This document shows positions 3,959-63,913 of a DNA stretch of 64,000 nucleotides, piece by piece. The translations under genes were made by a program, and so were the position numbers. Under the pieces are notes generated by a model. That model had not been told where the DNA came from. It saw only the letters and a list, made by a program, of their open reading frames with translations, and searched no databases. This stretch comes from Bacillota bacterium. GTDB lineage: Bacteria; Bacillota; Limnochordia; DUMW01. The stretch covers positions 1,137-65,136 of the forward strand of contig DUMW01000027.1 of the NCBI GenBank assembly GCA_012839765.1, written 5' to 3'. Position 1 is the first letter of the stretch. Each line of letters opens with the position of its first letter.

Positions 3959-3961
3959 GTA

Positions 3962-4000
3962 GGGTGGCGGGAGCCTTTCCCGCCACCCTTTTCCAGCGGT
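3962..4000 (+). terminator. Rho-independent terminator
   Basis: GGGTGGCGGGAG-cctt-TCCCGCCACCC followed by TTTTCC, immediately after the 2609..3958 stop. Confidence 0.7.
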
Positions 4001-4157: not shown

Positions 4158-5231
4158 GTGACCGCGGGTTTGAAGGAACAGATCATGGCCTATCTGGCTC
4201 AACAGAAGCGCAAACAAATCGAAACAAGGAAGATCGAGGACCATGTGCAGGCGAGCCTGGGTGAAGACTACTGGAAGGCAGGAGGCTATCCTCTCTTTGC
4301 CCGGAAGATAGGGGAGCTGGTGGAGGAGGGCATCCTTGCCCCCATCAAGGCCTGGCAACGGAATGGCCTGAATCCACCCCTATATAACGGCTATCGGATC
4401 CTGAAGCTAAGGGATAAGGGAGACCCTGACCTTACCAGGGAACTGCTTACCCAGTATCATCCCTTGCTCCAGATGCGCGCATATCTCGACCAACCGGACC
4501 AATACCAGGCGGATCGGGTGTATCTGAAGCTCCTTAGTGACTACTTGACCCACAGGGAACCCCTTTCCACGAAGCTCACCGTAAACGAAAGATCCTTTGC
4601 CATCTTCAATGATGAGAAGTTTCTGGCCTCGCCCCGGGGACAGGCCCTCTTGGCCCGGGTGGGTTTGACTTTAGCAGACCTGCATTGTTATCCCACCTAT
4701 GAACCCTTTTTCTATTACCAACGGGGCATCCCAGAGGGGCAGATCAATGTGTTGATCGTGGAAAACAAGGATACCTTTTACTCCCTAAAGTCCCTCCTGC
4801 AAAGGGGCTACTACCGTTGGGATAATCTCGCGGTGGACCTTCTCGTCTACGGAGAGGGCAAGAAGATCCTCCGCAGCCACAGCTACTTCGAGGAATTGGA
4901 TCAACTTCCGGTTCTCCCCACAGAGTTTTTCTACTTCGGTGACCTAGATCCGGTGGGGGTTAACATTTGGCATCGCCTAAGCCAGGTGCGGCCGGTGAAG
5001 CCCTTCGTCTTTTTTTACAGACACCTGTTACAGGACCATTTTTCCCGGGCCCCACAACTACGGACCAGGCAACAAGTGGGAGAGACCTCCCTGCGGGCTT
5101 TCCTAGCCCACTTTGCCCCCAGGGAAGCCCAATTGATCGAGGAGCTTTTCGCCCGCCATTGCTATTTGCCCCAGGAGGGGCTTCATTTCGCCAAGCTACA
5201 AGCCTTGGCCGCGGGGGGAGAGGAAAGATGA
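4158..5231 (+). CDS. jetD: Wadjet JetD / MksG-like Toprim nuclease subunit (DUF2220-like)
   Basis: Toprim signature: conserved Glu in VLIVENKDTF (about residue 202) and DxD in FFYFGDLDPVG (about 262-264). At 357 aa it is compact relative to JetD. Its stop overlaps the next gene's start (ATGA). Confidence 0.65.
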   Translation: MTAGLKEQIMAYLAQQKRKQIETRKIEDHVQASLGEDYWKAGGYPLFARKIGELVEEGILAPIKAWQRNGLNPPLYNGYRILKLRDKGDPDLTRELLTQYHPLLQMRAYLDQPDQYQADRVYLKLLSDYLTHREPLSTKLTVNERSFAIFNDEKFLASPRGQALLARVGLTLADLHCYPTYEPFFYYQRGIPEGQINVLIVENKDTFYSLKSLLQRGYYRWDNLAVDLLVYGEGKKILRSHSYFEELDQLPVLPTEFFYFGDLDPVGVNIWHRLSQVRPVKPFVFFYRHLLQDHFSRAPQLRTRQQVGETSLRAFLAHFAPREAQLIEELFARHCYLPQEGLHFAKLQALAAGGEER

Positions 5232-6787
5232 CCCATTGGCAGGACATTTTCGCAGGCTTTGCCCAGCGTATGAACAATATTGCCGCCTTCGCCCCCCTGT
5301 TACAGCTAGCCCAGAAGACCTCGTACCAAAGGTATTCCCTACCGTCCCTGGGTTTGGCGGTGATGCTATTCATCCTCGAGGATATGCTTCGGAACACCAA
5401 GCAGAGTACCTACGAGAACATCGCTTCGTTCCTTAGGGAGATAATCCTCCGCCACTACCATGAGGACCTTACCCGGGAGGAGGCCCTAGAGCTAACCTAC
5501 TTCCTCGTCAAAGAGGGCCTCATGAATCAGGGACAACCCCATCAATACACCTACCCCGATTTCGAACGGGGGGAAAACCACACCCATAAGTTCCACTTGG
5601 TGGAACTGGCCGAATACGACGTGGGGGAGCGGAAGGTGCTGCTTAAGCTTTCTACCACAGGCCTTGACCTTCTGTTCAAGACCAAGGAGATATACAACGA
5701 ACTGCAAATCTCCATCGCCCAGTTGTACCTGCGGCAACAGATCCAAAAGGGGGTCTTTGACGGGGCCCTACGCACTGTGGAGGAGCTGGCCTTGGCCGTA
5801 CGCACGGAGAAAGAAAGGATCCAGCGGCTTGAGCAGCGAATTATCCAAGACGTGCTGCAGGTGGCCAGGGAACAGGAACTAGAAAAACAACTGGAGCGCA
5901 TCGACAACCAGCTGCAGCGGGAACAGGAGGTTTTCCGGGAACTGACAGAGCTCATCGACCACACCCTATCCCAGTACCAGGGGGGAAAACTGAGCCCCAC
6001 CGAAGAGGCGGGACTCCAGTCCATGATGACCGTACGCAGGCGACTGTTGGATGTCATCTATGAACATGAATCCTTGTTTAAGGACAAGCTCCGGGTCCAT
6101 CAACTGATGCTGGAGGCCATCGAAGCCATGATCCTCACCTCCTTCACCACGAAGGTGAACTTCGAGACGGAGTTTCTACAGCCGGTGGTGACCCAAAACG
6201 CTCCCATCACCGTCCTGAAAGGGATTATCGATCCCGTATTACCAGTAAGGATACGTAAAGCCTTCCATCCGGCCCGGGCCTTTCTGCCCCAGGTATTGCC
6301 CAAAGAAGCGGAAGAAGAGCTCAGCGCACAAGAGCTTTTGGAACTGGATGCCCAGCGGCAAAGGGAAGCGGAAAGCAGGGAACGGGCCCTGTACCAGGAG
6401 CGTCTAAACCGCCTAGAAAGCTATTTATCGCTCCTTTTGGAGCCTTTGCTCCGGCAACGGGAGATCCCCGTAAGCCAGATCCTAGCGAAGCTAGAGCAAA
6501 AGGATCCGGAGAAATACCGGAAGATCACAAGCCAGATGGACTTTTACGCCTGCCTAGTACAACTGCACCAGCTGGGAGTAGTCCCCATCTACAACGAAGC
6601 CCAGGTAGATCTGTTGGTGCTAGACGATCTACCAAAGGTCTTAGTAAAACTGGCCACCACCAATCCTGCCATCCAGGGGCTCGGAGCCTTTGAAGTGCTG
6701 GCCACCGAAGGAATCATCACCCTGCCGGCAGGCTATGTCATGAGCGATTTTCTACTCAGGAGGGCAAGGGAAGATGGAATGGACTAA
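5228..6787 (+). CDS. jetA: Wadjet JetA / MksF-like kleisin-type subunit (DUF3375-like), 519 aa
   Basis: The track ORF 4967..6787 overlaps the upstream gene. The real start is probably ATG 5228 (MTHWQDIFAGF), with SD GGAGAGGAAAG and ATGA stop-start coupling. The central region is long and helical with charged heptads, and the size and operon position fit JetA. Confidence 0.6.
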   Translation: MTHWQDIFAGFAQRMNNIAAFAPLLQLAQKTSYQRYSLPSLGLAVMLFILEDMLRNTKQSTYENIASFLREIILRHYHEDLTREEALELTYFLVKEGLMNQGQPHQYTYPDFERGENHTHKFHLVELAEYDVGERKVLLKLSTTGLDLLFKTKEIYNELQISIAQLYLRQQIQKGVFDGALRTVEELALAVRTEKERIQRLEQRIIQDVLQVAREQELEKQLERIDNQLQREQEVFRELTELIDHTLSQYQGGKLSPTEEAGLQSMMTVRRRLLDVIYEHESLFKDKLRVHQLMLEAIEAMILTSFTTKVNFETEFLQPVVTQNAPITVLKGIIDPVLPVRIRKAFHPARAFLPQVLPKEAEEELSAQELLELDAQRQREAESRERALYQERLNRLESYLSLLLEPLLRQREIPVSQILAKLEQKDPEKYRKITSQMDFYACLVQLHQLGVVPIYNEAQVDLLVLDDLPKVLVKLATTNPAIQGLGAFEVLATEGIITLPAGYVMSDFLLRRAREDGMD

Positions 6788-7529
6788 GGAAGATGTACAA
6801 CTGGCCTTCCGGATCTTCATTGAGCTGTTGGACCGACAGGTGACCGATGAACGGGAGCTGCTTTACGCCTATCAACGGAAAGAAGTCAGGGAGATCCTCG
6901 AAACGGTGATCGAAGCAGAAGCGGGGGTAAAGATCTTCGCCCTCGCAGACCGGCTCTACCTTTCCCCGGGACTAGACAACCGGATCTTCGGCTATACCAA
7001 CGAGGAACTGCGGGAAAAAATGAAGCTCCAGGACAACCAGGAGCTCTACTTGGCGTATTTCACCATCCTATGCCTACTGGCCAAATTCTACAACAGCGAT
7101 GATCAGAGTCTCGCGGCTCGGCAGTTTCTGCCCTTGGAGGAACTGGAGGAGACCATCACCGCCTATCTCCAACGGGTTCGGGAAACAGCCCCGAAACAGG
7201 TGGAAGAGGCCAGCCAAGAGCTACAGCTGAACCTAGCCAGCTGTGCGGAGATCTGGCTGGACATGCCCGCCTTCGACGAATCCCTCAAGCATCCCCGACG
7301 GGGCCGGAACAACCGGATCAGTTTCCTTTTGCGGGTGCTGAGTTTCCTGGAGAACGAGGGATTGGTGCAGATCATCCAAGATGCGGAGGTGCGCCTACTG
7401 CCCAAACTGGAGCACCTCATCCTCCGCTATTACTTCCACAGCCAACGGAAAGATGAGTTGTTAGCGCTCCTTTCCACACCCGAAAGCTTTACCAAGGGCC
7501 TAAGGGGGACAGAAAATGCCGCGCATTAA
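6774..7529 (+). CDS. jetB: Wadjet JetB / MksE-like subunit (DUF4194-like), 251 aa
   Basis: It shows 14-nt overlaps with both neighbours (translational coupling). The size and position match JetB; there are no catalytic motifs. Confidence 0.6.
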   Translation: MEWTKEDVQLAFRIFIELLDRQVTDERELLYAYQRKEVREILETVIEAEAGVKIFALADRLYLSPGLDNRIFGYTNEELREKMKLQDNQELYLAYFTILCLLAKFYNSDDQSLAARQFLPLEELEETITAYLQRVRETAPKQVEEASQELQLNLASCAEIWLDMPAFDESLKHPRRGRNNRISFLLRVLSFLENEGLVQIIQDAEVRLLPKLEHLILRYYFHSQRKDELLALLSTPESFTKGLRGTENAAH

Positions 7530-10500
7530 CCGGATTCGCCTAGGGAACATCATCTACGACCACGGCAAAAAACATATTGGAGACATCTGCTTTAGTCTCG
7601 GAGGACAGGATACGGTCTTTTTGTTGGGCAACGGGGGAGGGAAGACGCTCCTGGCTCAACTGGTCCTGCAGACGATTCTCCCCAACGCCCGGTTGGGCAA
7701 CCGAAAGCTTGCGGACCTGCTTCAATCCCAGCGCTTTACAGGACATGTGGCGGTGGAATGGCGGCTAGACAGTACCGGTAGGGCGGAACAGTATCTTTGT
7801 ACGGGGTTTTGCTTCACCAATGGTCTCACCCCCGAGGAGCCCATCCGCTACTTCAACTATCTGTTCGATTACGAAACCAAGGGACCAAAGAACTACTCCC
7901 TCTTCGGGGAAGAAGATGTAGATGGGCAGCTTTCCATCACCCAACTGCCCTTCACGGTGGTGGATGGGGTACTGGGAATCCGGACACCCATCGGCTACCA
8001 AGAACTGTGGGACTGGCTAGAGGAGCGCAAGGACCAAGGGGTACAACTGTTCCGCCAGCAGCCCAAGGTCTATCAGGACCGTCTACGGGTGTATCAGCTA
8101 TATGCAGAGGAATGGGAAAACATCCAGAAGACCAATGGCACCGAGGGAGGCGTAAGCCGGTTCTTCGAACGGGCCAAGACCACCACTCAGCTTTTGGACC
8201 AGCTACTCATCCCCAGTATGGAGCAGGTGATCTACCGCAGTGAAGAACGAAAAAAAGAACTCCTGGCCGGGTTCATCGAACATCAGAACCTCCTTTTACA
8301 GATCCCCCAAATCAAGCAGAATATCCAGGATTTCAATGTGATCCAAGACGAGGCAGAGGGGCTGGTAGAGGAAGTCAAGAAGCTCCATAACAGAGAAGTC
8401 GAGGCCCAAAGAAAGGCCGAAAACCTCTTCCGCCTGGCCCAAGGAGTTTACCGTCAACAACAGGAAAGCAGTAAGCGATGTGCCCACTTGGAGGAAGACT
8501 TAGGCCAAAAACACCAAACCCTCCGGGAACTCAAATGGCAGGAAGCAAGTTACGAAGTCTTCAAGCAGGAGCAAGAAGTTCAAAGGCTAAGGGAACAACT
8601 AACCCTAGCCCAGGAGGAACTGGCCCGGCGCCAAGACCAACTGGCGAAGGCCCAACAAGAGGAACGAAAACTCCACGCAACAATCCAATACCACCGACGG
8701 CAACGGGCCCGGGAAGAACAGGAATACTATGCCCATCAACTGGAGCTTTTAGATAAAGGGGAACCGGAACTGCAGGAAGAACTAGAAACCACCAGTGGCA
8801 AGGCCCGGTTCGCCTGGGAGAAGAAGAGAGAGGAATTCACGGTAGCCCGCCAAAGGACCAAAGAACAGCTAGTCCAACGGGAAGAAACCCTGCAGGAGTT
8901 GCAGGGTAGAATTCAGACCCAGCGAACCCGTCTCGAGGAACTGATCGACACCATGGGCCGGCTAAAGGGTTGGTTTGAACAATACAAAGCTAAAGAAAAG
9001 CAAATCCTGGTCCTGGTCCCCGACCTGAACCGCCTTACGCCCCAGGACACCCTCCGACAACGGCAAAGGATGCTAGACCAACTGGAGAAACAGACGGAGG
9101 CCTGCCGCACAGAGATCGACAACCTCACCCAGGAAATCCGTCAATGGTGGGAACACAACAGGGAATTGACCGGGAAACTGGCCATCCTGCAAGGACAACT
9201 GACCGGGATCCAAGAAAACCTCGCCACTTTTGGGCGGACCAAAGATCAGTTAGTACAGTTGCTCCATGGGGCGGGGATCTTTATCCGGGATCCCTTTGAA
9301 GAACCGGGACTTTTAGCCCGCGTCCATAGTTTGTGGGAGGAGGCCCAGCGGGAATGGATCGCTGCCCAGGCCAAACTGGCCAGTCTCGAGGAAACCGCGG
9401 CCACCATCACCCACAGCGAATACTTCGTCCCCCACCGGGAGCTGGTAGCCATCCAAGACTACTTGGCCCGACTAGACATCCCTGTCATCCTGGGTAGCCA
9501 GTGGCTCCAAGAGCATTTTCAGGATGAGACGGCCCGGGAGGAGTTTTTGAAACAAGAGCCCCTCCTTCCCTTTAGCATCGTCATCGAAGCCGGGCAAGTA
9601 AAGACCATCGGTCGGTACCTGCGCCAGATGCGGGATCTTTCCTGTGAGTTTCCCATCATCCTTTGGGTGAAGGGCGCACCCCAAAGGACTACGTCCCAAG
9701 GGGAGCTTGTATCCATCGGACCTAGGGAACAGTACGTTTTCCTTCCGGAAAGCAGGTCCCTATATACTTCTCCCCAGGCCTTCCAGGAATTCAAGGAAAG
9801 GCTCCAGGAGAGGATTAACGAACAAAGGAACCTGGTGCAAGGCCTCCGGGATAGGGAAGAGGAAAGACGCTATCTGAAAGAACAAACCCAACACTTCTTC
9901 CGAACCTATACCAAGGAGCAAATCCTCCAGTGGCAGCAACAAGCGGAGGAACTTACCAAGCAGTGTGCCGAAAGGGAGAAGGAAATAGGAGACACCAAAG
10001 CCCGGTGTAACGAGCTAGAAGAAAGACAACGTTTGACCCAAGAGAATCTTAGGGACCTAGTGGAAAAACAACACCGCCTGGCAAGCCTGGTGGCAGATCT
10101 CGAGGAGTTTGTGCAGTGGTATCACCAGTACCAAGAGCACCAGGCCACCAAAGCCAAGGTGGAAAGGGAGATCGCCCACCTCCAACAACAGCGGACCCTG
10201 CTCGAAGAGGCCACCTCCCGCATCCAAGGGGAAATCTCCGCGCAAAGGGTGCAGTTAGCTAGCCTAGATAAAGCTTTGGCGGATCACCAAAGGGAACTGG
10301 TGGATTTGGCTTTGGATAGAACAAGCCCCCTGGCTACCGACGAGGATTACGCCACCTGCCGGGCCCACTTAGAAGCGGTAAAACTCCGCTTAGCCCAAAA
10401 ACAGGTAGATCGCCAGAACCTGGAAAAACTCCTGGCCAAGGCCAATGCAGAATACGCGGAGACCCAGGCCCAGATCCAGGCTAGCGGCATCAGCGAAGAG

Positions 10501-11928
10501 ATCCTTGCCAGCGAGGCCCGACCCGTAAGCAGTGAAGAACTAGCCCAACAGATCAGGACACGCCAGGAACTAGAAAGGGACTGCCGCGACCAGGAAAAGA
10601 AGGTGGACTCCTTGGAATCCACTCTGAAAGGGCTAGAATTCATCAGGGATCGGTTGGCCGCGGAGGTGGAAAGGGAGTATCAAAGGCCCCCCTACCTGAC
10701 CTTCGACCCGGCCACGGCCCAGGCCCAGTATCAATACCTGAGGGAAAGGTTGGCCCAGGTGCAGGGGGAAATCCAAGACATCCAAAAGGCCATCGACGAA
10801 GAACGGGCCTGGCAGCAACAACTGGCCATTGCCGGTGACTTGCTGCGGGAAAAGGTGGCCTCTCTAGACAAACCCGCTTCCACCGATATCCCATTGGATT
10901 GGCGCCACTACGGCACCGAGCCTTTGAAAGCCATTCAGGCGGCCATCCGGGAACAGGAGGAAGCCGCAGACCGCGTGCGGCAGCAACAACTGGAGGTGAG
11001 GGAACGTTTTCGAAAATACTATTTCCGGCTCCAACAGACCAACAATCCCAAGGTGAACCAGTTTCTGCGGGATGTTCAGGCCCTGATGGACGAGGATCGG
11101 ATCTACAACTTCGATTTCGTGGAAACCCAGTTTCTGCGCATCTTTGAAGCCCTCGACTACTACCGTCGGCAGGCGGAGGAGACGCTGCACCAGTGTGAGA
11201 CCAGTTTCCACCAGCTGGTGCAACTGAGTCTTCGCCGGGCCCGGGAGGTCCACCGGAGCATCATGGAACTGCCGAAGAATTCCCGGGTAATCCTCTATGA
11301 CCAGCCCGTTCAGGTGATCCGCATCGAGTGGCCCATGCAAGAGGAGGCCCAGGCCCAACAGAGTATGGAACAGTACCTGGAGAAGCTGCTCAGAGATCTA
11401 CAAGTCTGGAAGGCCCAGGGCATCGACGACGATGAGCTGAACCGGCGCATGGAGGATATGCTTTCCACTAGAAATTTGATCAACGTCTTAGCGCCCATCG
11501 AGACCTGTCGGGTCACGGTGTATAAACCCCGGAAGGAGTCCATCGCCAGGGTGGAGCGTCCCGAATACTTCCCCTGGGATGAGGTAACCCGCTGGTCTGG
11601 CGGGGAGGAATACAGCGTATACATCACCATGTTCATGATCATGCTCACCCATATCCGCCGCCAGTCCGAAGGGTTGCTCCACTCTTGGAAGGTCCTCTTG
11701 GCCGATAATCCCTTCGGCGTGGCTTCGTCGGATCACATCCTGGACACCATGTTCCAGGTGGCCCGCGGCAACCGGATTCAGCTTTTGTGCCTTACGGCCC
11801 ACCGGGAGGCCAGCATCCTCAAGCATTTCCCCACGGTCTACAGTCTCCAGCTGCGGCCAGCTTACGGAAAGGAAACCCTGACCGCCGAGCAAATGGAAAA
11901 GGGATTCTATGCAGAGATTAGTACTTAG
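7516..11928 (+). CDS. jetC: Wadjet JetC / MksB-like SMC-family ATPase (1470 aa)
   Basis: N-terminal Walker A GNGGGKT after MPRINRIRLGNI. About 1000 aa of Q/E/R/L-rich coiled-coil sequence follows. C-terminal head: signature WSGGEE, Walker-B-like VLLADN, D-loop ASSD, H-loop LLCLTAHRE. Confidence 0.85.
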   Translation: MPRINRIRLGNIIYDHGKKHIGDICFSLGGQDTVFLLGNGGGKTLLAQLVLQTILPNARLGNRKLADLLQSQRFTGHVAVEWRLDSTGRAEQYLCTGFCFTNGLTPEEPIRYFNYLFDYETKGPKNYSLFGEEDVDGQLSITQLPFTVVDGVLGIRTPIGYQELWDWLEERKDQGVQLFRQQPKVYQDRLRVYQLYAEEWENIQKTNGTEGGVSRFFERAKTTTQLLDQLLIPSMEQVIYRSEERKKELLAGFIEHQNLLLQIPQIKQNIQDFNVIQDEAEGLVEEVKKLHNREVEAQRKAENLFRLAQGVYRQQQESSKRCAHLEEDLGQKHQTLRELKWQEASYEVFKQEQEVQRLREQLTLAQEELARRQDQLAKAQQEERKLHATIQYHRRQRAREEQEYYAHQLELLDKGEPELQEELETTSGKARFAWEKKREEFTVARQRTKEQLVQREETLQELQGRIQTQRTRLEELIDTMGRLKGWFEQYKAKEKQILVLVPDLNRLTPQDTLRQRQRMLDQLEKQTEACRTEIDNLTQEIRQWWEHNRELTGKLAILQGQLTGIQENLATFGRTKDQLVQLLHGAGIFIRDPFEEPGLLARVHSLWEEAQREWIAAQAKLASLEETAATITHSEYFVPHRELVAIQDYLARLDIPVILGSQWLQEHFQDETAREEFLKQEPLLPFSIVIEAGQVKTIGRYLRQMRDLSCEFPIILWVKGAPQRTTSQGELVSIGPREQYVFLPESRSLYTSPQAFQEFKERLQERINEQRNLVQGLRDREEERRYLKEQTQHFFRTYTKEQILQWQQQAEELTKQCAEREKEIGDTKARCNELEERQRLTQENLRDLVEKQHRLASLVADLEEFVQWYHQYQEHQATKAKVEREIAHLQQQRTLLEEATSRIQGEISAQRVQLASLDKALADHQRELVDLALDRTSPLATDEDYATCRAHLEAVKLRLAQKQVDRQNLEKLLAKANAEYAETQAQIQASGISEEILASEARPVSSEELAQQIRTRQELERDCRDQEKKVDSLESTLKGLEFIRDRLAAEVEREYQRPPYLTFDPATAQAQYQYLRERLAQVQGEIQDIQKAIDEERAWQQQLAIAGDLLREKVASLDKPASTDIPLDWRHYGTEPLKAIQAAIREQEEAADRVRQQQLEVRERFRKYYFRLQQTNNPKVNQFLRDVQALMDEDRIYNFDFVETQFLRIFEALDYYRRQAEETLHQCETSFHQLVQLSLRRAREVHRSIMELPKNSRVILYDQPVQVIRIEWPMQEEAQAQQSMEQYLEKLLRDLQVWKAQGIDDDELNRRMEDMLSTRNLINVLAPIETCRVTVYKPRKESIARVERPEYFPWDEVTRWSGGEEYSVYITMFMIMLTHIRRQSEGLLHSWKVLLADNPFGVASSDHILDTMFQVARGNRIQLLCLTAHREASILKHFPTVYSLQLRPAYGKETLTAEQMEKGFYAEIST

Positions 11929-23518: not shown

Positions 23519-24565
23519 TTGGTGGCCATCAAGACATTTTCATTACCGAGACAAACCAAACTCTTCATGCCTACCCAGGTGTATATAGAAGAGAAAGCCT
23601 TAGACTATCCCCTAGGGCGCCACCTGCAGAACCTTTTTGCCTTACGGCAGATCCCCATCACCATGGTCCCGTCCCATAATCAGCTGAATATCCCCGGCAG
23701 CACCTCCGCAGAACGGTTTCACCGGGCTAAAGAAACCTTGGTGGTGGGAGTAAAAAGGGATCTTAACTTTCGCCCCTGCCGACCCTCCGCGGATTTCCGG
23801 CTGGTAGAAAACACCAGTTGTCCGGGGAAATGCCAGTACTGCTATCTGGCCGCTAATCTGGGAGAGCGGATCTATCCTAGGGTGTATGTAAATGTAGATG
23901 AAATCCTACTAGCAGCAAGGAGGAAGATCCAAAGCCGCATCCCGGAACTTACTACCTTTGAGGCCAGTAGTTCATCGGACCCCGTAGCCCTGGAACACTT
24001 CACCGGTTCTTTGGCAAAAACCATCGAATTCTTCAGGGACCAACCCTACGGCAGGCTGCGGGTGGCGACCAAATTTGCCGCCATCGAACCTTTCTTGGCG
24101 TTGGAGCACGGTGGACACACCAGATTTCGCTACAGCCTCAACACAGAACGCATCATCCGAGAGTACGAGGAAGGCACCGCCCCTTTAGAAGCACGTCTAC
24201 AAGGATCAAGGCGCCTTGCGGAAGCGGACTATCCCATCGGCTTCATCATCGCACCGTTGATGATCTATCCCCAATGGCAGGAGGAATATGGGCAGCTTTT
24301 GGATCGGGTGCGGGAAGTCCTAGGACCCTGGGGGAAGAGGGAAATCCCCTTTGAACTGATTATGCACCGCTTCACCGCCCGCTCCAAAAGACTCACCCAG
24401 GCGCGGTTTCCCCAGTCCACCCTAGATTTCGACGCCGCCGCACGAACCCATAAGGGTTTCGGAAAATATGTCTACACACCAAAGAAGGCCCAGGAATTGG
24501 CCGAGTTTTTCCAAAAAGAAATCCCCCGCCGTTTTCCGCAGGGGACTGTCGCCTACTTCACCTAA
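23519..24565 (+). CDS. splB: Spore photoproduct lyase (radical SAM)
   Basis: It matches B. subtilis SplB block for block from memory: QVYIEEKALDYPLG, SHNQLNIPG, CPGKCQYCYL (CxxxCxxC), YVNVDEIL, TTFEASSSSD, LRVATKF, TRFRYS, PIGFIIAPLMIYPQW, FELIMHRFT, GFGKYVY and C-terminal YFT. TTG start with a G-rich SD. Confidence 0.9.
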   Translation: MVAIKTFSLPRQTKLFMPTQVYIEEKALDYPLGRHLQNLFALRQIPITMVPSHNQLNIPGSTSAERFHRAKETLVVGVKRDLNFRPCRPSADFRLVENTSCPGKCQYCYLAANLGERIYPRVYVNVDEILLAARRKIQSRIPELTTFEASSSSDPVALEHFTGSLAKTIEFFRDQPYGRLRVATKFAAIEPFLALEHGGHTRFRYSLNTERIIREYEEGTAPLEARLQGSRRLAEADYPIGFIIAPLMIYPQWQEEYGQLLDRVREVLGPWGKREIPFELIMHRFTARSKRLTQARFPQSTLDFDAAARTHKGFGKYVYTPKKAQELAEFFQKEIPRRFPQGTVAYFT

Positions 24566-53005: not shown

Positions 53006-53135
53006 TGTTAATAACTGAATGTCATGTTACTGTATGTAACTTCGGAAGCGATGAACCCTGATTGTATGTGGTCACTTTGGATCAGGGTGAGCTAGTAGTG
53101 AAACCGGCCGAGGTATCGGCCGGTTTGTTTTTTTT
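53006..53135 (+). ncRNA. Putative small structured RNA / cis-leader with its own intrinsic terminator (orphan terminator on + strand)
   Basis: Promoter-like TTGTGT(52970)-18nt-TAGAAT(52994) with an upstream TG. Hairpin CCCTGAT...ATCAGGG (53056-53087). Terminator AAACCGGCCGA-ggta-TCGGCCGGTTT+GTTTTTTTT (53101-53135). No + strand CDS lies upstream (the neighbour is minus-strand); the pilin gene starts 85 nt downstream. Confidence 0.4.
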
Positions 53136-53219: not shown

Positions 53220-53657
53220 ATGTTTAAATTATTTAGAAAGAAAAATGAAGAAGGATTTACCATTGCAGAATTGTTAATCGTTATTGTAGTGTTGGGAATC
53301 CTCGCCGCCATTGCCATCCCTAGTTTCACTGGTCTCCAGAAAAGGGCCCGCAGGGCAGAACTAGAGAGCAATGGAAGGGCCATTGTGCTGGCTTTGGAGA
53401 TGTATAAGATTGAAACAGGAAAGTATCCCGACGTTCAAACGCAAGAGAATAATATTAACGAGCTAAAAGTTCCCCTTCAGGGTTATCTGACCAATGTTGA
53501 ACAGATCCTGCAAACAGTCCCCAGTGGAACCTACAAGAAAGATACACCAGAAGGGGGGTATACACTTACCTTGGGCGATGGAGATGATACTGAGGTTACT
53601 TTCGTGAACGGCGTACTTCAAACGGAATCTGAAACGGAATCTAAACCGGAACCGTAA
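53220..53657 (+). CDS. Type IV pilin / pseudopilin (prepilin with class III leader)
   Basis: MFKLFRKKNEEG|FTIAELLIVIVVLGILAAIAIP. This is the prepilin peptidase cleavage motif (G/F) with Glu+5 and a hydrophobic helix. SD GAGGGGGGAA. No pilus assembly genes are nearby. Confidence 0.85.
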   Translation: MFKLFRKKNEEGFTIAELLIVIVVLGILAAIAIPSFTGLQKRARRAELESNGRAIVLALEMYKIETGKYPDVQTQENNINELKVPLQGYLTNVEQILQTVPSGTYKKDTPEGGYTLTLGDGDDTEVTFVNGVLQTESETESKPEP

Positions 53658-63776: not shown

Positions 63777-63807
63777 TATAGCTCGTACTGCAAAGTGAAT
63801 ATTGATT

Positions 63808-63900
63808 TGCCCGCTGGGGGAGCACCATCAGGGTGCTGAGAGTGGATTCGTTCCTGACCCCTGAACCTGTTAGGGTAATGCCTGCGTAGGAAAGCGGAGC
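63808..63900 (+). promoter_or_regulatory. TPP (thiamine pyrophosphate) riboswitch aptamer (THI element)
   Basis: CTGGGGGAGC...GGTGCTGAGAG...ACCCCTGAACCTGTTAGGGTAATGCCTGCGTAGGAAAGCGG carries the conserved THI-box elements (GGGG.GC, CUGAGA, ACCCnnGAACCUGnnnGGnUAAUnCCnGCGUAGGnA). P1 is about 63811-63816 paired with 63892-63897. Confidence 0.85.
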
Positions 63901-63913
63901 TCAACGGAACTTT

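Follow-up and report, generated by a model that had tools for sequence, protein, structure and literature searches.

Probable type III Wadjet operon in a Limnochordia-like Bacillota genome, with the nuclease gene first and a non-canonical Walker B motif in its SMC-like ATPase

Introduction

Which system is encoded by four overlapping open reading frames (ORFs), all on the + strand, at positions 4158-11928 of a Bacillota contig, and is it peculiar that its nuclease gene stands first? The locus lies in a stretch of 64,000 nucleotides (nt), hereafter the window, from a bacterium placed in Limnochordia (GenBank assembly GCA_012839765.1, contig DUMW01000027.1, positions 1,137 to 65,136). An initial annotation, whose ORF coordinates within the window are used here, had read the genes as a Wadjet (JetABCD-type) system in an unusual D-A-B-C order, located like an inserted defence island. 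As described below, the locus is very probably a complete and intact type III Wadjet, jetD-jetA-jetB-jetC, carried on the chromosome of a Limnochordia-like Bacillota genome. It is an ordinary additional member of a type already defined, and both its identity and its anti-plasmid role are well supported.

Assignment to Wadjet Type III

In the PADLOC defence library, Wadjet type III is defined by the co-localisation of JetA3, JetB3, JetC3 and JetD3, and each of the four proteins matches one of these profiles: gene 1 matches JetD3 (4.2e-94, amino acids (aa) 8-348), gene 2 JetA3 (7e-136, aa 6-515), gene 3 JetB3 (3.3e-80, aa 2-234) and gene 4 JetC3 (3.4e-134, aa 1-1464). These matches are far beyond chance over the full lengths of the proteins, while the type I and type II profiles gave marginal matches, the best at 7e-5. 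The proposed composition of a Toprim JetD, a kleisin-like JetA, a JetB and a JetC similar to SMC (structural maintenance of chromosomes) proteins was thus borne out, with all four assigned by PADLOC.

Regarding other family libraries, Pfam recognises JetD_C in gene 1 (4.8e-7) and DUF6063 in gene 3 (4.7e-54) and gives no significant family for genes 2 and 4; NCBIfam returned SMC coiled-coil matches only, all of them sub-threshold. The Pfam families that had been put forward earlier, DUF3375, DUF4194 and SMC_N, do not match the locus proteins, because those families describe type I. The type III JetB corresponds to DUF6063, and Pfam lacks a family for JetA3 and JetC3. The protein sizes, about 350, 520, 250 and 1450-1500 aa, are the same in the locus and in type III, whose profiles cover all four proteins over their full lengths. 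The locus differs from other members in its Limnochordia-like host and in being chromosomal and standing alone, with no mobile-element genes among the neighbouring ORFs scanned. It is also distant in sequence from the Bacillus copies, the JetD protein being about 26-29% identical to JetD of B. cereus-group plasmids.

Compared with Wadjet type I (E. coli GF4-3, P. aeruginosa JetABCD and C. glutamicum MksBEFG), the same four parts are found, namely an SMC protein, a kleisin, a third subunit and a Toprim nuclease. The type I JetD has about 390 aa with extra N-terminal domains (DUF3322), whereas that of the locus has 357 aa; the type I JetC has about 1070-1100 aa and the canonical Walker B 'FDEAF', whereas that of the locus has 1470 aa and Asp-Asn. 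By sequence, no similarity of JetA3 to JetA1 or of JetB3 to JetB1 could be detected, and the DUF3375 and DUF4194 families of type I are not matched.

In the 357-aa reading, the JetD nuclease carries VLIVENKDTF at aa 198-207 (nt 4749-4778), with the Toprim glutamate E202, and FYFGDLDPVG at aa 258-267 (nt 4929-4958), with D262 and D264. In an alignment of 30 JetD homologues, numbered on the 348-aa form of the protein, E193-N-K-D, Y222-x-E224-G-x-K, G252-D253-x-D255 and P329-Q-E are invariant; E193 and D253/D255 are E202 and D262/D264 in the longer reading. The AlphaFold (AF2) model, with a predicted local distance difference test (pLDDT) score of 91.9, shows the Toprim strand order, with the Glu after the first strand and the DxD after the third. 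Its best PDB matches in Foldseek, at probability 1.0, are TopoVI-A chains (9o8p_A, 3.9e-5; 1d3y_A, 3e-4), and the C. glutamicum MksG nuclease (8b7f_A, 1.4e-4, probability 1.0) is also among the best.

A comparison of the JetD3 profile with the type I JetD of another surveyed locus, L050, gave a probability of 91.5% in hhalign, pairing VLIVENKD with VITIENLT and FYFGDLDPVG with FYHFGDIDAGG. This places the Glu and the DxD on the catalytic positions of the type I JetD. In the E. coli JetD, Mg is bound by E248/D290/D292, and the E248A substitution abolishes restriction (bioRxiv 10.1101/2022.10.04.510915). The Toprim signature that had been noticed in gene 1, as in JetD/MksG, is therefore confirmed at the residue level by the hhalign alignment and by the fold matches; the JetD3 family profile gave no usable match against PDB sequences. 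With TopoVI-A/Spo11, the closest folds, JetD has in common the metal-binding Toprim Glu and DxD, but it lacks a TopoVI-B partner and is coupled to an SMC complex instead.

For JetA, the profile match agrees with the fold. The AF2 model, built with 38 homologues, has a pLDDT of 76.5, and its top PDB matches in Foldseek are MukF chains: 9gm7_C (3.6e-4), 7nz2_C1, 9gm9_D, 3euh_B and 3euh_A. Once redundant entries are set aside, the five best matches are all MukF and range from 3.6e-4 to 1.9e-2 at probabilities of 0.94-1.0, and further MukF chains (3rpu_A, 1t98_A) are found lower in the list. The earlier reading of gene 2 as a kleisin-like JetA is upheld by both lines, with the fold of the model supporting the kleisin role at modest statistics. 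Gene 3, taken for JetB at first from its size, is an unambiguous member of JetB3/DUF6063 and is presumed to be the KITE subunit.

Gene Order in Homologous Loci

The three Wadjet types have been defined by sequence similarity and by operon organisation (review, PMC10586767), and the D-A-B-C order of the locus stands against the A-B-C-D order of type I, of which L050:4202-10545 is an example. Scanning with a JetD3 profile, limited to one genome per species, gave 80 loci, whose neighbouring genes were checked by tblastn with the window proteins. In 75 of the 80, JetD was followed on its own strand by JetA, JetB and JetC in this order, and tblastn gave no JetA, JetB or JetC match upstream of JetD or on the opposite strand in any of them. 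In one further locus, L083, the ORF downstream of JetD is JetA3 by PADLOC, and it is counted as D-A-B-C. Two loci end too soon to be informative, leaving 78 from other species, with D-A-B-C in 76.

The nuclease gene also comes first in RefSeq-annotated plasmid copies, from C. perfringens pJFP838A and from a B. cereus megaplasmid, both annotated as 'JetD domain protein - hypothetical - DUF6063 - hypothetical (1450-1520 aa)'. The D-first order had been thought unusual, a view to be given up if relatives commonly shared it; given the surveyed loci and the annotated plasmid copies, it is refuted. Type III loci with A-B-C-D do occur in Proteobacteria. In plasmid pPNAP03 of Polaromonas naphthalenivorans (L092:2276-9816), all four proteins match the PADLOC type III profiles, and E. 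coli 64A:C (L093:1863-9723) has the same order, its ORFs being assigned by size, order and JetC motifs only. As the proteobacterial type III has A-B-C-D and that of Bacillota D-A-B-C, the gene order switched within type III. D-A-B-C therefore characterises the Bacillota branch as a clade, and the window conforms to it; in future scans, this order can be taken as the signature of the branch and not as an anomaly.

Two of the surveyed loci have a JetD3 gene without JetABC3 downstream. In L050, this gene (5-1027) is located at the contig start, 3 kb upstream of the complete type I operon mentioned above; in L039, it (5595-6686) has a PDC-M24B-like gene on one side and an HNH/type IV restriction-like gene on the other. 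Both may be orphan or re-used nucleases. Moreover, the plasmid records with JetD3-like genes (hits H1-H16) are all large, from 133 kb to 1.08 Mb, plus one record of 4.9 Mb labelled as a plasmid. With at least 133 kb, they fit the reported limit of about 100 kb for Wadjet targets, and the carriers would therefore escape their own system.

Likely Function and Mechanism

The likely function of the locus is the restriction of small circular plasmids, as suggested by the mechanisms of types I and II and by assays of a B. thuringiensis operon. On a small circle, according to work on types I and II, the motors run into each other and stall, and JetD is recruited and cuts; ATP hydrolysis is needed, and linear or very large DNA escapes (bioRxiv 10.1101/2022.10.04.510915; 10.1101/2025.03.10.642339). 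This mechanism of loop extrusion and cleavage has been established for types I and II only. When three JetABCD operons, that of B. thuringiensis among them, were assayed in B. subtilis, each of the three blocked pHCMC05, pC194 and pLS20, and the block depended on the JetD Toprim Glu (bioRxiv 10.1101/2022.10.04.510915). That study names no Wadjet types; B. thuringiensis is given as the type III representative in a figure legend of the type II study, where types II and III are described as 'largely uncharacterized' and, 'by extension', are expected to work on the same principle (bioRxiv 10.1101/2025.03.10.642339).

By analogy, JetC would form an SMC-like dimer with ATPase heads, long coiled-coil arms and a hinge, whose ring would be closed by the MukF-like kleisin JetA, with JetB bound to JetA. 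The JetABC complex would then load on DNA and scan it, and small circular DNA such as plasmids would be recognised. The Toprim nuclease JetD would be licensed at this point to cut the recognised circle, and the plasmid, once linearised, would be lost while the large chromosome is spared. Extrusion followed by cleavage is slightly favoured as the mechanism of this locus too. The host is predicted to resist small plasmids, which is relevant for making the organism genetically tractable.

Several observations weigh against the reading of the locus as a Wadjet that works like its better studied relatives. The fold matches between JetA and MukF have modest E-values, from 3.6e-4 to 3e-3, and low template-modelling (TM) scores, and in hhalign, there was no significant profile similarity between the JetA3 alignment and JetA1 or MukF, nor between the JetB3 alignment and JetB1 or MukE. 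The nearest system assayed experimentally, the B. thuringiensis operon, appears to be only distantly related, because the JetD proteins on B. cereus-group plasmids have the low identity to the window JetD given above. Finally, the Walker B Asp is followed by Asn in 146/146 alignable JetC representatives (from the best 150 of the 808 cluster representatives found at E <= 1e-3 in a library-wide search), and the H-loop His is kept in only 80 of these 146. In type I, the E1022Q variant of the E. coli JetC abolishes ATPase activity and DNA cleavage (bioRxiv 10.1101/2022.10.04.510915).

The JetC ATPase and Its Walker B Motif

The Walker A GNGGGKT, the signature WSGGEE and the LTAHRE segment of gene 4 are all present where they had been claimed (Table 1). 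Regarding composition, two long arms rich in Glu, Lys, Arg, Gln, Leu and Ala and poor in Pro and Gly flank the Pro/Gly-rich, hinge-like segment, an arrangement that fits the succession of head, helical arm, hinge, helical arm and head. The N-terminal head aligns with MukB residues 18-189 (probability 89.5%, hhalign) and with type I JetC, to which it is homologous (probability 93.6%). Against PDB sequences, the C- and N-terminal head profiles of JetC3 gave only a weak Smc4 match at the signature motif and MukB 1qhl at E = 0.41.

The canonical Walker B has the form hhhhD-E, with a catalytic Glu, where the window JetC has VLLAD-N1398-PFG. The Asp-Asn pair aligns in hhalign with D1406-E1407 of MukB ('LFLDEAARLD') and with the 'MFDEAFDKMD' of type I JetC. 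This alignment of the C-terminal head is weak on its own (E = 0.007-0.014), and the equivalence rests on the order of the motifs, that is, the signature followed after about 30 residues by a hydrophobic strand ending in Asp, which in the sequence leaves no alternative position. The residue after this Asp is also Asn in 44 of 44 JetC homologues from the surveyed loci, and the DNPF-type Walker B occurs in the type III copies of Polaromonas, E. coli, C. perfringens and B. cereus as well. As judged from these sequences, the Asn is shared throughout the type III family and is not peculiar to the window locus, and the invariant Asn-Pro-Phe would indicate selection for a different active-site arrangement rather than decay. 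No mention of it was found in the searchable literature.

Other parts of the nucleotide site are kept, with the Walker A Lys in 99/100 representatives and SGGE in 125/146. No acidic D-loop residue was seen after the Walker B motif of JetC. In the N-terminal head, just before the neck, an N-x-x-E-G-G motif is nearly invariant (N207 in 100/100 and E210 in 99/100); by its pattern, it would resemble the Q-loop segment of SMC/Rad50 heads, with Glu for Gln. As type III JetC has an invariant Asn for the Walker B Glu, its ATP-hydrolysis step may work differently from that of type I. It is tentatively proposed that the type III SMC ATPase lost the Walker B Glu, the acidic D-loop residue and the conserved H-loop His, kept Walker A and the signature, and gained E210.

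An alternative would accordingly accept the locus as a type III Wadjet and give it a different ATPase logic, with JetC binding ATP and engaging its heads without a canonical catalytic base. Two variants can be considered: JetC may be an ATP-gated clamp or switch, slow or regulated, and not a processive loop-extruding motor, or hydrolysis may use a relocated carboxylate, for which the invariant E210 is the candidate. What speaks for it is the Asn in all loci examined, those of the proteobacterial branch and those on plasmids among them, its alignment with MukB and type I JetC, the missing D-loop acid, the variable H-loop His, the invariant N207 and E210 and the dead Glu-to-Gln mutant of type I. 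However, the equivalence of the Walker B positions relies on motif order, and a place of E210 near the nucleotide would be a conjecture from sequence. Moreover, plasmids are restricted by the B. thuringiensis operon, the named type III representative, just as by the other two assayed, and in the type II study extrusion and cleavage are anticipated for type III as well. This reading is regarded as possible but doubtful, and the preferred one is a type III Wadjet presumably acting by extrusion and cleavage, with an ATPase cycle that may differ from type I.

If the different logic were true, either the catalytic carboxylate would have been relocated in the active site or JetABC would be an ATP-gated, plasmid-sensing clamp with little or no hydrolysis, and either outcome would set type III mechanistically apart from the loop-extruding types I and II. 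Among the Wadjet types, only type III has neither biochemistry nor a structure, and a residue whose mutation kills type I is replaced in it family-wide, which offers a direct experimental handle on whether extrusion and cleavage are common to all types. This Asn is the one item worth passing on from the locus, which in other respects adds an intact type III Wadjet from a little-studied, Limnochordia-like lineage of Bacillota.

Operon Organisation

The four co-directional, tightly overlapping ORFs described initially were reproduced in coordinates, strands and overlaps. The overlap between jetD and jetA is the ATGA of 5228-5231 (4 nt), and those between jetA and jetB (6774-6787) and between jetB and jetC (7516-7529) have 14 nt each. 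A purine-rich, Shine-Dalgarno-like stretch precedes every internal ATG, and jetDABC is most likely expressed as a single translationally coupled operon.

Table 1. Features of the jet locus and motifs of the encoded JetC (nt, position in the window)
Feature	Position (nt)	Strand	Size or residues	Description
Intrinsic-terminator-like hairpin	3961-3995 (stem-loop 3961-3989)	+		12-bp GC-rich stem, then UUUUCC
jetD (type III)	4158-5231	+	357 aa from GTG	Toprim nuclease, N-terminal winged-helix/CAP-like part
jetA (type III)	5228-6787	+	519 aa from ATG 5228	MukF-like kleisin candidate
jetB (type III)	6774-7529	+	251 aa	Family DUF6063, presumed KITE subunit
jetC (type III)	7516-11928	+	1470 aa	SMC-like ATP-binding cassette (ABC) ATPase
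JetC Walker A GNGGGKT	7627-7647	+	aa 38-44	Motif
JetC N-x-x-E-G-G (N207, E210)	8131-8154	+	aa 206-213	Invariant motif, N-terminal head
JetC hinge-like break		+	about aa 560-760	Pro/Gly-rich segment
JetC signature WSGGEE	11593-11610	+	aa 1360-1365	Motif
JetC non-canonical Walker B VLLADNPFG	11692-11718	+	aa 1393-1401	Asn1398 in place of catalytic Glu
JetC H-loop LTAHRE	11791-11808	+	aa 1426-1431	Motif

The start of jetD is ambiguous, with GTG 4158, TTG 4170 and ATG 4185 as candidates. The last, giving 348 aa, is the start in public gene calls, while the N-termini of the homologues favour GTG 4158 or TTG 4170, which restores the shared 'MK..I..Y' residues.

Regarding the 5' boundary, the terminator that had been noticed upstream was recovered: its stem-loop lies directly 3' of the stop codon of the upstream DUF4139 gene and folds at -28 kcal/mol, with z = -4.0, a value equalled by 0/200 shuffles. 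It ends the DUF4139 gene, and the jet transcription unit is bounded by it on the 5' side. The hairpin is not listed in a simple consensus terminator scan, because its T-run is short, and the consensus promoter and terminator scan gave nothing informative in the intergenic regions. No strong terminator was found 3' of jetC (folding z = -1.2).

The same arrangement is intact in six independent metagenome contigs, 98-100% identical. In one of them the gene calls are split, consistent with assembly errors. The possibility that the locus is degraded or pseudogenised was rejected, as the ORFs and motifs are intact and this identity holds in all six contigs.

Genomic Setting

The locus had also been described as placed like an inserted defence island, and a stronger form of this idea would make it a recently acquired, self-contained island whose D-first order arose by rearrangement at insertion. 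Its operon boundaries are indeed sharp, with the terminator upstream and an unrelated gene for glycoside hydrolase (GH) family GH172 starting 89 nt downstream. The upstream neighbours encode a metallo-beta-lactamase-fold protein, a 2-hydroxyacid dehydrogenase and the DUF4139 protein, and those downstream encode GH172, GH127, a GH63-like hydrolase and a sugar-binding protein. Against an insertion, the GC content stays at 0.54-0.56 through the locus and both flanks, and only the AT skew rises, as expected because jetC is a Glu/Lys-rich coiled-coil gene. No tRNA gene was found in the whole window, and Pfam showed no integrase or transposase family in any flanking ORF scanned or in the ten largest of those at 45-64 kb, a scan that left out the ORFs of 24.5-45 kb.

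The closest relative, a Limnochordia metagenome-assembled genome (MAG), has proteins 62% (JetD), 73% (JetA), 75% (JetB) and 52% (JetC) identical to those of the window. Its operon shows the same 14-nt overlaps and lies downstream of the same 2-hydroxyacid dehydrogenase (77%) and DUF4139 (48%) genes, whose identities bracket those of the Jet proteins. Two extra genes stand between this upstream pair and the operon in the MAG. Its downstream neighbours differ from those of the window, which could be taken in favour of an island. However, the upstream pair is shared with the window at a distance of 52-75% identity between the Jet proteins, and the D-first order is family-wide in Bacillota and therefore not a local event. 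A recent island is thus very improbable, and the comparison did not hold, given the flat GC, the shared upstream genes of the MAG and the lack of mobile-element families in the ORFs scanned. The type III operon looks like an old resident of its chromosomal neighbourhood and a solitary system; the PADLOC scan covered the jet proteins and no neighbouring ORF, and other defence genes nearby are not excluded by it.

The resemblance to E. coli MukBEF has also to be considered. JetA has MukF as its best fold matches, the JetC head aligns with MukB as stated above, JetC with 1470 aa is close to the 1486 aa of MukB, and both systems are operons of overlapping genes. On the other hand, MukBEF has no Toprim nuclease partner, unlike the locus, JetC3 has Asp-Asn at the place of the MukB Walker B D1406-E1407, and MukE has no detectable similarity to JetB3. 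A housekeeping MukBEF/MksBEF-like condensin for chromosome organisation, despite this MukF-like and MukB-like architecture and a location among housekeeping and metabolic genes that is syntenic in the relative, is hardly credible: such an operon would have three genes and no Toprim nuclease, whereas here jetD overlaps jetA by 4 nt, is kept in the operon in 76 of the 78 informative loci and has intact and invariant catalytic residues, all four proteins fall in the type III Wadjet defence profiles, the family is patchy in distribution and also found on megaplasmids, and the B. thuringiensis operon named as its representative restricts plasmids.

Other Features of the Window

A spore photoproduct lyase gene is located at 23519-24565 (+; Pfam SPL, 1.6e-111). 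It is consistent with an endospore-forming Bacillota host and agrees with the Limnochordia-like affinity of the Jet proteins.

A cyclic di-GMP-II riboswitch (53035-53118, +; 72 bits, E = 3e-14) was found at the edge of a stretch of lower GC, at about 52-59 kb (0.46-0.48 vs 0.55 elsewhere), which also holds genes for an AraC regulator, a nitroreductase, a dUTPase and a Cro/CI-type helix-turn-helix protein. About 100 nt downstream of the riboswitch, the ORF at 53220-53657 encodes 145 aa with an N-terminal methylation (pilin-like) motif. Near the window end, a thiamine pyrophosphate (TPP) riboswitch was found at 63806-63909 (+; 70 bits, E = 9e-12), and the gene it regulates lies beyond the window.

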